A model generated the notes under the pieces. It did no database searches, was not told the origin of the DNA, and saw nothing but the letters and a program-made list of their open reading frames with translations. A stretch of DNA of 64,000 nt. Source: Eledone cirrhosa. Its lineage: Eukaryota. Below, piece by piece: positions 7,368-44,117 of this stretch. Where the stretch lies: contig OZ024747.1 of NCBI GenBank assembly GCA_964016885.1, positions 49,104,001-49,168,000 on the forward strand, read 5' to 3'. Position 1 is the first letter of the stretch. The number at the start of each line of letters is the position of its first letter. The position numbers and the translations under genes were made by a program.

Positions 7368-7455
7368 AGTCCCGACTGTCGACAGTTTCACTCGTACTTA
7401 GTGGAAATGTCTAATAGTTGCAGTATCCACGAGGCTTCGAGCTTATCAAGAGACT
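7368..7455 (-). ncRNA. Type I hammerhead ribozyme, U3-A8 core variant, extended stem II
   Basis: agtctc-TTGATAA-gctcg-(insert)-cgagt-GAAA-ctgtcgacag-TC-gggact. Confidence 0.8.
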
Positions 7456-7774
7456 CCCTCAGATAGAAAGCAAATTTCCAAAGTGATCGCTGTTAGTAAC
7501 GAATTCAAAAGGGGTGAAAATCATCACGTAGCTAGAATTGTTGTGATGGGTAGACCGGTGGCAAGTAATACACACACACACAAATATATATATATATATA
7601 TATATATATATAGGAGGAGGTTATAGTTCACTTGAAGCATTGTGTAATGAGGTATAAACGTTTGAATATGTATAATAAAGCCAAAACAATGCAGGTATGG
7701 ACATAGAAAAAAGAATGCAATTGCAAAAGATATTGTTGACAATTCGTCTTTTACCTTAGATTTATTTTAAACGT

Positions 7775-7809
7775 CCTTAATTTTCGAGATAATATCTCTT
7801 CTTCAGAGG
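7775..7809 (-). ncRNA. Minimal type I hammerhead ribozyme
   Basis: cct-CTGAAGA-a-gagat-att-atctc-GAAA-at-TA-agg. Confidence 0.75.
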
Positions 7810-8039
7810 GAAATAAAGGTCTCAAACCAGCCTTCTAAATATCTTGCCAAGCCATGCTGACAGGAAATAGTATAGAGTATCTGTTCTATCTCTAATGTCA
7901 AAGAGTTAAAATTAGGTGGATAAAGAGTAGTCTCCCTTTAAAAGGGGTTTGTTTAGGTTTTTTTTATATACATGCCTGTTTAAGTGTGTGGGAGAATGCA
8001 TGAAGGTGTAAGTATGTGAGTGTGTGTGTGTGTGAGTGT

Positions 8040-9770
8040 GAGAAGATAAGTCTATTCGTAAATGTGGCGGATAGGTGTTATCTGGTGTTAGAACTGGTTT
8101 TGTGTGTGTATGTGTGAGAGAGAATAAGTGGAGGTGTAAGCGTGTGTGTGTGGTGTGTATGGGGTGTGTAAATATGGGGCTAGAAGCCCTATCAGGTTAT
8201 AAATTGGGTGTTGAGTTCTAGTCTATTATTGATAGGTGGTTGTGTTTTATCTATAATTAGTGCTTCCTTAATTCTAAGATTGCCGAGGTTTCTTTCCTTA
8301 GTTTCTATCCTAACTGTTATTGTTTTGTCGGTGTTTTTGCATTTAACTAGGTGTTTCTTAAATGAGGAAGCGTTAGTATTGAGGTGTTCTTTTATTCTTA
8401 TGTGGCGTGGTCTGGTGGTGCTACCTACGTAGAAGTTGTTGCATTTGTCACACTCTAGTCTGTATACGACGTAAGCCTGGTGGCATAGGTCTGTGTCGTT
8501 GATGGGGCAGTTGGCTAGTCTGCAGCAGTTGTCATGTCTGGTGGAGTGTCTTATGGCTAGCTGTCCGCGCAGAGAAGGACCTGAGTGGGCCAGTTGGATA
8601 TCTAGTCCTTCTCGTCTGATGGCTCTGCGGATGGCTGTTGTTGTTTCTTCACTGAAGTGTGGGAGCTTCAGGAAGCAAGTGTTAGTGCCTCGGGTGTGGT
8701 GTCCTCTGTTCTTTCTGGCACGGTTTGGGGTGGATGTCGTGTATCCGTTCAGTTTGAGTACTTCCAGGAAATGTGTGGTGTGTGTGTCTCGGTCTCTAGA
8801 GTCGGTGCATTTGTTCCGGATACGTGCCAGTTCGTTCCTTATGTATCCGAACTTGGCACCGAGTGGGAGAGCCGATCTGAAATGTACGAACAGGTCCCTG
8901 CTGGCGGCTTTTTTATAGAAGCAGGTGTGGATGTTGCCTTCCTCTGTTACCCTGAGTTGGAAGTCCAGTAGGGATAGGATCCGCGGTCATCGGGGTGTTC
9001 CATGCTGAACTTTATACTGGCGTCCATGCTGGAGAATGTTGTGTATATTTTATCTGCCTCCTCACGGGATGATGTGAGGATGAGTATGTCATCTACATAT
9101 CGGGTGAAGAAGGCATGGGAATGGCAGGTGTTGAGGGCTCGGCATTCTAGCTGGTTCATGTAGGTGATGGCCAGCAGGCCCGATAGGCTGGATCCCATGG
9201 GTAATCCTGTTGTCTGTCTGTATGTGTGGTGGTGGAAGGTGAAGTACGTGTTGTCTACTGTGAAGGACAAAAGCTGGTGTATGTCCGTCGGGTGGAGGCC
9301 GTAGCAGTGGATGTCCTCTGCGACCACGCAGTCCGTCAATAAATCGACAGCTGGATGAGCGGGGACTGTAGTGTAGAGTGAGACAACGTCGAGGCTAAAA
9401 GCGTATTTATTTAGTTTAAGTTGTTCTGGCTGGAGTTGGTGTAGTCTACGTATAACTTCGTCGGAGCTACTGACATGCCCGGGAAAGGTGGAGAGTAGAG
9501 GCTTGAGGACCTGGGAGAGGAGCCAGGAAATTTTGTATAGGGGTCCTTCTATGCTAGAGACGATGGGTCTTATTTGCGTCTTAGTGCTATTCTTGTGGGT
9601 CTTGATGAGGTGGTAGAAAGTGGGCAGTCTGCTATTTCTAGTGGTGTAGTTGAGCTTAACTTTATTTGGGAGTTGTCTTCTCCTACAGATATCGAACCAA
9701 ATGGAGTTGGTCTGTTTTTCGATCTGGGCTGCAGTCATGTCCGGGATCTCTGTGTATAATTCATTGTCGC
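8040..9770 (-). mobile_element. Penelope-like element (RT plus GIY-YIG endonuclease), 5'-truncated, one frameshift near 8950
   Basis: FYHLIKTHK, RPIVS, SLDVVSLYT, GLPMGSSLS, RYVDD; shifted frame VVYRLEC..FYVGST.R..HIRIKEH. Confidence 0.95.
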
Positions 9771-9884
9771 TTATATATATATATATATATATATATATAT
9801 ATATATATATATATATATATATATATATATATATATATATATATATATAGAGAGAGAGAGAGAGAGAGAGAGAGAGAGAGAGAG

Positions 9885-41192: not shown

Positions 41193-41612
41193 ACACACAC
41201 ACACACACACACACACACACACATATATATATATATATATATATATATATATATATATATATATATATATATAAGAATAACATTAAGAAAAATGGTGATG
41301 TTACATAAATCGTTTATTCATAATAATTATTTCAACGGTTCCCTTATGCAATCCATGATGTAACATATGCATTTGTTGTTGTTATGAGAACGGTATCCGA
41401 TTTTATGATATGCCGCAGGCAAAAAATACGTCCTTCTTCTCCTGTGCCCGGCTGACACACACTCACATATATATATATATATATATATATATATATATAT
41501 ATATATATATATATATATATATACATATATATATACATATATATATACATATATATATATATATATATATATATATATATATATATATATATATATACAT
41601 ATATATATATAT

Positions 41613-41856
41613 ATATAAATTACAGAATATTCAAAACTATGTTCAAAACATTTTATTGCTGACAATCGTTTCTTCCAAACTTTCGTTTGGAATCATCGGA
41701 GCACTAGCAAATTTTAGACATATAATTAACCTCCTATTCCACAGAATATGTCTAGAATTTTCTAGTGCTCCGATGATTCCAAACGAAAGTTTGGAAGAAA
41801 CGATTGTCAGCAATAAAATGTTTTGAACATAGTTTTGATTATTTTGTAATTTATAT
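41613..41856. mobile_element. Fold-back HHR cassette; arms 41613-41723/41746-41856; HHRs at 41657-41703 (-) and 41766-41812 (+)
   Basis: tgct-CCGATGA-ttccaaac-gaaa-gtttggaa-GAAA-cgattg-TC-agca then ATAAA, in both arms. Confidence 0.93.
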
Positions 41857-42080
41857 TCCTGCTCTGTAAAACATCTGATGTATTTATATGGAGCTATTTT
41901 TCTTACTGATAACAAGGTGGTAATTAATTACTGACCTTTCCTGTTTATAATTATATATAGTGTATATATAAGTATAAATAATATTATATATATATATATA
42001 TATATATATATATATATATATATATATAAACAAGAAGTGTCAGTCAACAGGTTAAAATTAACTTCCTTTAATCATATTTA

Positions 42081-42137
42081 CTGTTATATATATTTCTGTG
42101 ATAACTATTATACAACAGTTATGACCTCATCAGACAG
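42081..42137 (-). ncRNA. Type I hammerhead ribozyme
   Basis: ctgt-CTGATGA-ggtc-ataactgtt-gtat-aatagttat-caca-GAAA-tatata-TA-acag. Confidence 0.85.
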
Positions 42138-43917
42138 CTAGAATTTGAACAGAAACAAACAGAAAAACATAATAATGAAATAAAGCTTACTTCTGTTGTT
42201 TCAATTCCTTGATATGCTCCGGGCTGGAGTGTGGAGTTTTCTCAAGGCACTGGTCGCATAGAATGAACGAATTTAAGCATCAGTAGAATTAACCCCTTCC
42301 CATTGATCAAATTTAGCTTCATCATTCCAACAATAAGTCTATTGAATTTCTTAGTGGTTCCATTGTCCAGGAATCAGGTCAATCAGTTGGGGTTGTTCTT
42401 AGCAGCCAGTAATAATAACTGAAGATACTCTAATCTATTTAGGAATGTTTGTTGGCCTCTGTGACCTAGCTAGTTGTAGTAGTGGTAGTAATGTTGATGT
42501 AACTATCGGTAATAAAAGAATGTGTTAGTGAAAATTGCGAAAATATATACAGATATAGGTCCCTTAGAAGAATGGAAATAACATGTGTATGTTTATCAAT
42601 ATTAAGAGTAATGATAATATAAGAAAGTGTTAAAATTATAATCCAAATTTTGTATGTAGTCTATAATTCAGAATCATGGAAATAAAAGAATGTGTTAAAC
42701 TTATAATCTAAAATTATGTATGTACCCCTTCAAGCCGTATTGGAATGTTAGGAAATATTGCATATGTGTGTGTGTGTGTGTGTGTGTATGTGTGTGTGTG
42801 TGTGTGTGTGTGTGTGTGTGTGTATGTGTGTGTGTGTGTGTGTGTGTGTGTACGTGTGTGTGTGTGTGTGTGTGTGTACGTGTGTGTGTGTGTGTGTACG
42901 TGTGTACGTGTGTACGTGTGTGTGTGTGTGTACGTGTCGTGTGTGTGCGTGTGTGTGCGTGCGTGTACCCTTTAGAAGAATGAAAATAAAATGTGCCTGC
43001 TAATCTATATTAAGAATGGCATTTGTAGTTTACTTATCACAGTTTGTAGTTTACTTATCACAGTTTGCGAAAGAAATTATGTTGGCGATAGTTTGTCGTT
43101 AAGAAAACCAAATTAAATGCTCAACATCGAAACGGGTGGAGGATCCATCGTCATTCCACTCTCCCCTATTCTATTGTTCCAACGCTCAATGCCATCAACC
43201 GTTTTCCTTCTTAGCATTAGTCGGACACCATGATTTGCAACATAGAGTTACGGCCCTTTGCCGTTTCAGTTCAAATCCCGCCGGGGTTAACTTTGCCTTT
43301 CATCCTTACGGGGTTGATAAAATAAAGTACCAGTAATGCAATGGGATAATTGCTGGCCTTATGCCAAAAGTAGAAACAAATATTCTTAACTCCGGAGCTG
43401 AGAATCATTCTGTTTCCTAAATAGAATATTAGTCTGACTCCATTCATACCATAAACGTGGTTTTGGCTTTTTTGTCTTTGAGTGAACTTGTTCTCAACGG
43501 TCCACATAACAACGTATTATCTTCGATTTTTTTCCGTTCATTGCCAGGGAACGTCTTCACGAACTAAAGTATCGTCTTCCTGTTTTCCTTCGGTTGCAAC
43601 GTTTTTCGAAATATTTACTTCTGTGTCCACAGATTGATTTTTTTTAGTTTCAAAAGATCCCGATAAGGGTGAAAGCAGCGATTCTTTGCTTAAACTTTAA
43701 TCTGTTATTTCATATATGTTATATATATATATATATATATATATATATATATATATATATATATATATATATATATATATACGGAAAAATAAAACGAAAT
43801 TTCATACTTATATATATATAAGTATGGTAGGTCGTATGTGAATCGCGATGATCACGTCTGACCTACCAAATATGTGACGGTAGCTAGTTAAGCTCTATGC
43901 GTATACGCAGAGCAGAA

Positions 43918-44117
43918 ATATTAGTGAAAAAGAACAAAGGAACTATTATGACATTATAACGAGTTTATTGCCGACAGCCGTTTCGTCCGACCATATGGTG
44001 GGACTTTTCAAGGCATATAACATGTGAAAAGTCCCACCATATGGTCGGACGAAACGGGTGTCGGCAATAAACTCGTTATAATGTCATAATAGTTCCTTTG
44101 TTCTTTTTCACTAATAT
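43918..44117. mobile_element. Fold-back HHR cassette; arms 43918-44010/44025-44117; HHR at 43969-44015 (-) with U3-A8 core
   Basis: tgcc-TTGAAAA-gtcc-c-accatatggt-c-ggac-GAAA-cggctg-TC-ggca; one mismatch between arms. Confidence 0.92.

Follow-up and report, generated by a model that had tools for sequence, protein, structure and literature searches.

Positions 3 and 8 of the hammerhead ribozyme pair with each other in the active fold, and published work agrees with the statement of an earlier note on this DNA that C3-G8 is a Watson-Crick pair of the core. Covariation of C3-G8 to U3-A8 is on record for several hammerheads found in nature; it is described as rare, and the covarying pairs are called active in vitro with citation of Przybilski and Hammann 2007 (Perreault 2011, PMC3088659). 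Pairwise/deep mutagenesis of one type III construct found rescue by G3-C8 only, with low activity of the other 3/8 doubles (Roberts 2023). In Penelope-like elements, hammerheads are located in pseudo-LTRs according to published work, and lie close to the 3' end of the element (Craig 2021, PMC8557442). Insertions of these elements are 5'-truncated, with an adjacent inverted copy, a tail at one end and (TA)n targets (PMC8557442). Cervera and De la Pena 2014 (PMC4209133) report about 1,300 U3-A8 motifs in Schistosoma Penelope-like elements, and figure S3 of that paper includes S. mansoni (3) UUGAUAA and (4) UUGAAAA, the cores of the two motifs described here. In the same paper, the U3-A8 motifs of Cercyon are mostly single and come from truncated elements, with some pairs on opposite strands, and minimal hammerheads of Penelope-like elements cleave poorly in vitro even with C3-G8. 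The type I hammerheads of animal non-LTR retrozymes act as dimers and have a helix III that is weak and palindromic (PMC7229834; bioRxiv 10.64898/2026.07.22.740005), and these retrozymes have been argued to derive from Penelope-like elements (PMC7229834). No kinetics paper turned up in a literature search by mutant names, and the texts consulted give no rate of cleavage for any natural U3-A8 motif from a Penelope-like element.

The window, the whole 64-kb stretch of Eledone cirrhosa DNA that was analysed, contains two motifs with this variant, both on the minus strand. The explanation that we consider probable is that both are type I U3-A8 hammerheads in separate repeat insertions, likely Penelope-like 3' stubs, with a likely inherited swap and slow cleavage as dimers. 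Site 1 (7368..7455) has the core UUGAUAA (7443-7449, with U3 at 7449 and A8 at 7444), a helix I of 6 bp (7450-7455 with 7368-7373), a helix II of 5 bp with a long loop (7390-7442), GAA at 7387-7389, a palindromic helix III segment of 12 nt (7375-7386) and C17 at 7374. Site 2 (43969..44015) has the core UUGAAAA (44005-44011, with U3 at 44011 and A8 at 44006), a helix I of 4 bp (44012-44015 with 43969-43972), a helix II of 4 bp (43985-44004), GAA at 43982-43984, a palindromic helix III segment of 8 nt (43974-43981) and C17 at 43973. The earlier note had placed both motifs and their cores correctly and left the strand unsaid. In both, the boxes N3-UGA-N-N8-A and GAAA, U16.1, H17 and a Watson-Crick 3-8 pair are all present. 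Both have three helices with helix I open, and helix III is weak as a monomer, above all in site 2. The description of three intact stems thus holds for helices I and II and was overstated for helix III, which in the monomer amounts to a tetraloop closed by 4 bp in site 1 and by 2 bp in site 2.

A descriptor search of the window at a score of at least 12 returned 12 matches, comprising eight C3-G8, two U3-A8, no U3-G8, no C3-A8 and two others, with site 1 as the best-scoring match. A relaxed search gave 11 matches, nine C3-G8 and two U3-A8, and no core with a single mismatch; the restriction to paired 3/8 combinations among these 11 has a Fisher p of 0.018, for copies that are not independent. 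As had been predicted, a standard search misses both motifs: neither is reported as a hammerhead among the 107 matches (E up to 1) of an Rfam scan of the window. The Rfam Hammerhead_1 model is biased towards C3-G8, and the motif at 55796, although canonical, itself scores no more than 29.1 against 34. Over site 2, Rfam also matched mir-471 (34.4 bits against 80), which was rejected as an effect of the inverted repeat. Tandem copies of either site are absent from the window. The elements of the two sites share no similarity, as had been claimed, with 799 of 1000 and 1922 of 2000 shuffles scoring equally well, and a common origin was rejected on this shuffle-level comparison. C3-G8 stretches number about 770 in viral contigs that share one fixed helix II; 131 of them were examined, and 128 of 136 matches have intact helices. 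Six U3-A8, three C3-A8 and six U3-G8 were found in contigs with the same helix II, one each with intact helices, which is too few for a covariation test. Metagenomes gave 23 intact A8 motifs, 14 of them C3-A8 and seven U3-A8; since C3-A8 is the commoner, A8 alone is often a mark of decay.

Site 1 lies in a multi-copy, non-coding repeat on the minus strand (7358..7570), which is likely a 3' stub derived from a Penelope-like element. The 3' end of the family is at 7358/7359; the examined stretch ended at 7570, so the 5' limit may lie beyond, and a microsatellite adjoins (about 7575-7612). The family was sampled through sequencing runs that may be of another species than the window's, with no sequence piece spanning the locus, and is represented by 25-47 contigs per listed site in run X1, 30-35 in run X3 and none in run X5. 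Among the 40 of 282 difference rows listed, the majority of copies differ from this copy at 7400, 7416, 7423 and 7430, all in loop II. In this indirectly sampled consensus, no row at 7449 or 7444, which fall in the best-covered bin, is among the 40 of 282; these rows would also fit a family in which C3-G8 occurs in fewer than half, or about half, of the copies. Apart from positions 3 and 8, every core letter is kept.

The stub of site 2 is young, inverted and set within (TA)n. The insertion is 5'-truncated and inverted and sits at a microsatellite. The second copy of its repeat (44025..44117, plus strand), itself 5'-truncated, starts at U4; position 3 is lost at the junction and A8 is kept (44029). 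The two arms (44025-44117 and 43918-44010) are identical at 92 of 93 bases. The 3' tail of the element (43782..43968, minus strand) terminates at the (TA)n run and is homologous to the tail of a related element at 55625..55796 (minus strand), with 63 identities, 29 mismatches and 3 gaps and with none of 2000 shuffles as good. This relative carries a canonical C3-G8 hammerhead (55759-55796), the sole Rfam hammerhead match in the window. Another inverted stub in (TA)n, also related (41620..41960; 6 of 2000 shuffles score as well), has in each arm a core that is C3-G8 and bears C at position 4. An exact search of metagenomes for the site 2 family gave no match. Because the private changes listed for site 1 lie away from positions 3 and 8, while site 2 has A8 in both arms and kin by its tail that are C3-G8, U3-A8 was likely inherited, with a separate origin in each of the two lineages.

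The neighbourhood of site 1 includes a frameshifted Penelope-like open reading frame (8192..9768, minus strand) for a reverse transcriptase (RVT_1, E 3.2e-16) followed by GIY-YIG (E 2.3e-06). Site 1 is 740 bases downstream of it, beyond a (TA)n run, and the element with this reading frame has its own canonical C3-G8 minimal hammerhead in its 3' region (7775..7809, minus strand). Sequence comparison and sequencing-run pieces revealed no similarity or joining between the site 1 stub and this element. Near site 2, an open reading frame with reverse transcriptase and GIY-YIG is absent. The Penelope assignment of both stubs is likely, as judged from insertion anatomy. Additionally, a very high-copy repeat, separate from the site 1 family, occupies 6750..7225 (minus strand) and is 5'-truncated at 7225. 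Its depth of about 35,000-290,000 drops to below 100 at 7226, and loose ends behind 7225 appear in four of four sequencing runs. It bears a coding remnant, which we take to be a LINE restriction-like endonuclease; for this remnant (7011-7244), Pfam, the protein collection and PDB gave no match, and Atlas gave unnamed clusters only.

The helix III segments are self-complementary in 12 of 12 bases in site 1 and eight of eight in site 2, with self-pairing energies of -19.3 and -9.7 kcal/mol, respectively. As monomers, the hammerhead fold takes a share of about 0.07-0.14 of the ensemble in site 1 and 0.005-0.008 in site 2. Being weak and palindromic, helix III suggests cleavage as a dimer, and both motifs are predicted to cut slowly in that form. 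The parent element would be transcribed in tandem, and two copies would pair through the palindromic helix III (12 bp in site 1, 8 bp in site 2). The role of the U3-A8 pair would be to position the nucleotide 8 ribose, and the RNA would be trimmed when cut after C17. The core may have passed from C3-G8 to U3-A8 in two transitions, with a U3-G8 wobble as the probable intermediate, independently in each lineage. Standing alone in the genome, the two stubs are probably no more than inert passengers.

That a repeat-rich genome yielded the two motifs by chance, as hits of a loosely defined pattern, is barely conceivable. Monomer folding z-scores are unremarkable (+1.2 for site 1, -0.7 for site 2) and Rfam scores neither site, but block-wise dinucleotide shuffles (100 in all) averaged 0.07 U3-A8 matches per window at a score of at least 12 and 0.03 at a score of at least 16, where both sites still pass, against two seen. 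Moreover, site 1 belongs to a conserved repeat family, and the homology of site 2 to an Rfam-scored hammerhead element, together with the shuffles, refutes chance. Private decay, in which both copies were C3-G8 at insertion and acquired two transitions each afterwards, is very improbable. It accords with both changes being transitions, with the dominance of C3-G8 in the window and among the relatives of site 2, and, for site 1, with only 40 of 282 difference rows being listed. However, two named transitions have a probability of about 5e-4 to 9e-4 per copy at 3-4.5% divergence (site 1) and about 4e-5 at 1% divergence; A8 stands in both arms of site 2, which differ at one of 93 bases, and no majority difference falls at 7449 or 7444 among the 40 of 282 rows listed. 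Alternatively, the variant would be inherited but dead: a source copy with a crippled ribozyme would have been amplified, fixing U3-A8 in each family, and spread would need no cleavage. Naiad elements without canonical hammerheads do reach very high copy numbers (PMC8557442), doubles other than G3-C8 were weakly active in one construct (Roberts 2023), and the 41620..41960 stub, whose two arms both have C at position 4 of the core, shows that damaged cores get copied. This is nevertheless unlikely, as drift gives singles far oftener than doubles and the window has two doubles and none of 11 cores mismatched; site 1 keeps its other core letters, with the listed changes confined to loop II, and in vitro activity of covarying pairs is cited by Perreault 2011 (PMC3088659).

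It is likewise highly improbable that site 1 belongs to another element type, either as the 5' terminus of the neighbouring LINE-like repeat or as a non-coding retrozyme. The coding remnant lies about 140 bases downstream on the same strand, site 1 has no visible open reading frame of its own, and type I hammerheads occur in animal retrozymes (PMC7229834). Against this, site 1 as a 5' ribozyme of the LINE-like repeat was rejected since other copies continue differently behind 7225 and depths differ more than 100-fold between the two repeats; no bridge is among the pieces and joints listed, and run X5 contains the LINE-like part without the hammerhead. As for a retrozyme, site 1 lies outside any tandem array in the window, and retrozymes are themselves argued to be Penelope-derived (PMC7229834). 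Returning to U3-A8 as an inherited variant of Penelope-like stubs, a further proposal, that it arose and was kept more than once here as a deliberately slowed ribozyme, is doubtful. The families would then display a compensatory core change stepwise together with its cleavage cost, the steps being traceable through the close C3-G8 relatives that one of the lineages has within this genome.

The claim of a selected natural variant rather than decay is likely right as to inheritance, through the family rows, the paired-only cores and the site 2 arms, whereas selection on catalysis is conjectural; the variant is not new, as U3-A8 was published in 2011 and 2014. The variant is ordinary and known, and further examples are added here. 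Their significance alone is little, with variant, setting and both cores already in print. Searches for CUGANGA only, and Rfam, undercount the hammerheads of animal genomes (two of 11 here), and site 2 with its C3-G8 relative in the same window offers a natural pair for measuring the cost of the swap.

Compared with known systems, U3-A8 was described as rare (Perreault 2011, PMC3088659), whereas it occurs here in two of 11 motifs of one 64-kb window. Site 2 shows every insertion trait listed by Craig 2021 (PMC8557442), with an extra tail of about 135 bases against 30-40 there; unlike the elements of that study, neither stub has an attached open reading frame. Both sites resemble animal retrozymes in being type I with a weak palindromic helix III, but retrozymes form tandem arrays (PMC7229834; bioRxiv 10.64898/2026.07.22.740005) and neither site lies in one. 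The closest likeness in core is to the Cercyon Penelope-like elements of Schistosoma mansoni, which are also type I with a U3-A8 core (PMC4209133). In the Cercyon motifs, helix III is described as all but absent, and one additional base follows A9, whereas sites 1 and 2, from another host genome, lack this base and have a helix III of 2-4 bp whose loop is palindromic. In this form, both sites resemble the fly, shrimp and mosquito variants described in the same paper.

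The window is animal-like DNA in which (TA)n runs and dispersed repeats abound, and the two hammerhead motifs described by the earlier note, with U3-A8 in place of the canonical C3-G8 pair at core positions 3 and 8, are both present as reported and lie on the minus strand. Site 1 (7455-7368, core UUGAUAA) is the top-scoring descriptor match in the window and site 2 (44015-43969, core UUGAAAA) scores 17, while chance, estimated from 100 shuffles, would place 0.07 U3-A8 matches in a window at score 12 or more and 0.03 at 16 or more. All three stems had been called intact; helix III is indeed present but weaker than implied, reaching 4 bp in the monomer of site 1 and 2 bp in that of site 2. 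The predicted hammerhead fold accounts for 0.07-0.14 of the monomer ensemble at site 1 and 0.005-0.008 at site 2, and for an even lower share in three canonical motifs of the window. Helix III is self-complementary at 12/12 bases in site 1 (-19.3 kcal/mol) and 8/8 in site 2 (-9.7 kcal/mol), a feature which PMC4209133 and PMC3088659 give as a hallmark of hammerheads working as dimers. Both sites are real hammerhead motifs and the base-pair reading is sound. The two elements, as far as sequence comparison goes, are unrelated, as had been claimed, since equally good alignments arise in 799 of 1000 shuffles in one comparison and in 1922 of 2000 in another.

Hammerheads are frequent in this region. 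A type I descriptor gave 12 matches at a score of at least 12, versus 0.83 per shuffled window, and a relaxed second descriptor, restricted to a pyrimidine at position 3 and a purine at position 8, gave 11, comprising nine C3-G8, two U3-A8 and no mismatched pairs (Fisher p 0.018, with several C3-G8 matches being copies of the same family). Of the 107 matches that an Rfam scan returned (E up to 1), the sole hammerhead is the canonical motif at 55755-55799. Descriptor matches at 16447-16571, 42030-42140, 44760-44830, 45733-45911, 47402-47465 and 55315-55374 form a related C3-G8 group in which helix I is AT-rich and helix III palindromic; several of its members are arranged as inverted pairs. C3-G8 matches of other families lie at 47894-47968 (minus), 2740-2790 (minus), 35477-35519 (plus) and 44430-44476 (plus); the one at 47968 has a complete 5-bp helix III and could function as a monomer. 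Near-perfect inverted repeats of 44-256 bases, resembling inverted truncated insertions, occur at 16582-16707, 27551-27653, 40795-40996, 48146-48399 and 7296-7339. A SINE-like repeat of about 160 bases, perhaps akin to a cephalopod repeat, is dispersed over about 15 places (e.g. 4141-4312, 31826-31961, 54911-55331 and 61416-61798). Nested and broken remnants of putative reverse transcriptases, on both strands at 4300-6500, adjoin a presumably LINE-like fragment.

The surroundings of site 1 (6750-7570) were compared at 80% likeness with four of ten listed sequencing runs (X1, X3, X5 and X8), possibly from related species, in which no piece spans the locus. They comprise two separate repeats. 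The repeat at 6750-7225 is very highly abundant, and in all four runs its other copies continue differently behind 7225; the window copy is therefore 5'-truncated and unjoined to the site 1 hammerhead. The 7358-7570 family is represented at each listed site by 25-47 contigs in X1 and by 30-35 in X3, amounts to about 30-65 reads in X8, is absent from X5 at 80% likeness, and has 7359 as the end point of many of its molecules. Among the 40 of 282 differences listed, in each of which at least roughly 80% of a run disagrees with the window, those inside the motif (7400, 7416, 7423 and 7430) all fall in loop II. None affects U3 (7449) or A8 (7444), two positions in the bin where coverage of the family is highest. 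Had C3-G8 been in a large majority, it would probably have surfaced among these 40 of 282, but not as a minority or in an even split. The region upstream of site 1 contains a (TA)n run, a minimal hammerhead of canonical type (7809-7775) and a Penelope-like element, seen as a frameshifted ORF (8192-9768, minus) with reverse transcriptase and GIY-YIG domains; no similarity between it and site 1 was found. A cysteine-rich stretch precedes its GIY-YIG domain, matching the description of the Neptune and Nematis clades in PMC8557442.

Site 2 belongs to an insertion (43782-44117) flanked by (TA)n runs and made of a copy and an inverted 5'-truncated copy, with arms identical at 92/93 bases. The second arm begins at U4, position 3 being the junction base, and retains A8, so that A8 was likely already in the template. 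An exact search of metagenomes for its family obtained no copies. The tail of site 2, which follows helix I, matches the one behind the 55796 hammerhead, a C3-G8 motif (63 identities, 29 mismatches and 3 gaps; 0/2000 dinucleotide shuffles), and more weakly an inverted stub in (TA)n at 41620-41960 (6/2000 shuffles). Site 2 thus represents a U3-A8 offshoot of an otherwise C3-G8 lineage. In both arms of the stub the core is C3-G8, and position 4 is occupied by C (CCGAUGA). A helicase-like C-terminal fragment (55889-56158, minus; weak Pfam match, E 0.022), is presumably Helitron-like; about 90 bases downstream of its end lies the canonical hammerhead at 55759-55796 (minus).

The earlier note held U3-A8 to be a selected variant rather than decay. 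If two thirds of changes are transitions, the two named transitions would meet in one copy with a probability of about 5e-4 to 9e-4 at the divergence of site 1 and 4e-5 at 1%, either alone being 60 to 300 times likelier than both. Given this low probability and the lack of mismatched cores among the 11 matches, private decay is an unlikely origin. Metagenome and viral counts speak against too simple a view. In metagenomes, 119 of about 360 loci with A8 were covered, and the 23 motifs with intact helices among 118 matches carry C3 in 14 cases, U3 in 7 (some near-duplicates), G3 in 1 and A3 in 1. Viral contigs hold one intact motif for each of the three non-canonical combinations (U3-A8, C3-A8 and U3-G8) versus about 770 C3-G8 stretches. 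U3-A8 hammerheads whose helices are intact, belonging to type I or type III, occur in metagenome and viral contigs at loci L151, L167, L186, L203, L221, L253, L263 and L004.

The general acid in the hammerhead is the 2'-OH of nucleotide 8, which would explain why an alternative Watson-Crick 3-8 pair is tolerated. The parent elements of both sites may have cleaved slowly as dimers, C3-G8 may have turned into U3-A8 via U3-G8, and the stubs in the window are probably inert. The active core contains a C3-G8 pair (PMC3884650), and a U3-G8 family is recorded for Saccoglossus in PMC4209133, which also proposes that Penelope-like element hammerheads, poor in vitro cleavers, trim precursor RNA as dimers. 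Reports on U3-A8 activity conflict: covarying 3-8 pairs are called active in vitro in Perreault 2011 (PMC3088659), whereas Roberts 2023 (PMC9901934) describes rescue by G3-C8 only, in one type III construct. Literature searches found no cleavage kinetics for U3-A8 in the texts they covered.

The variant itself is not new. Natural U3-A8 covariation is reported in Perreault 2011, and Cervera and De la Pena 2014 (PMC4209133) give about 1,300 U3-A8 motifs in S. mansoni, retrieved with a dedicated descriptor. Both sites thus represent an already published variant in its usual setting, and their cores, UUGAUAA and UUGAAAA, are identical to cores in the supplement of the latter study.
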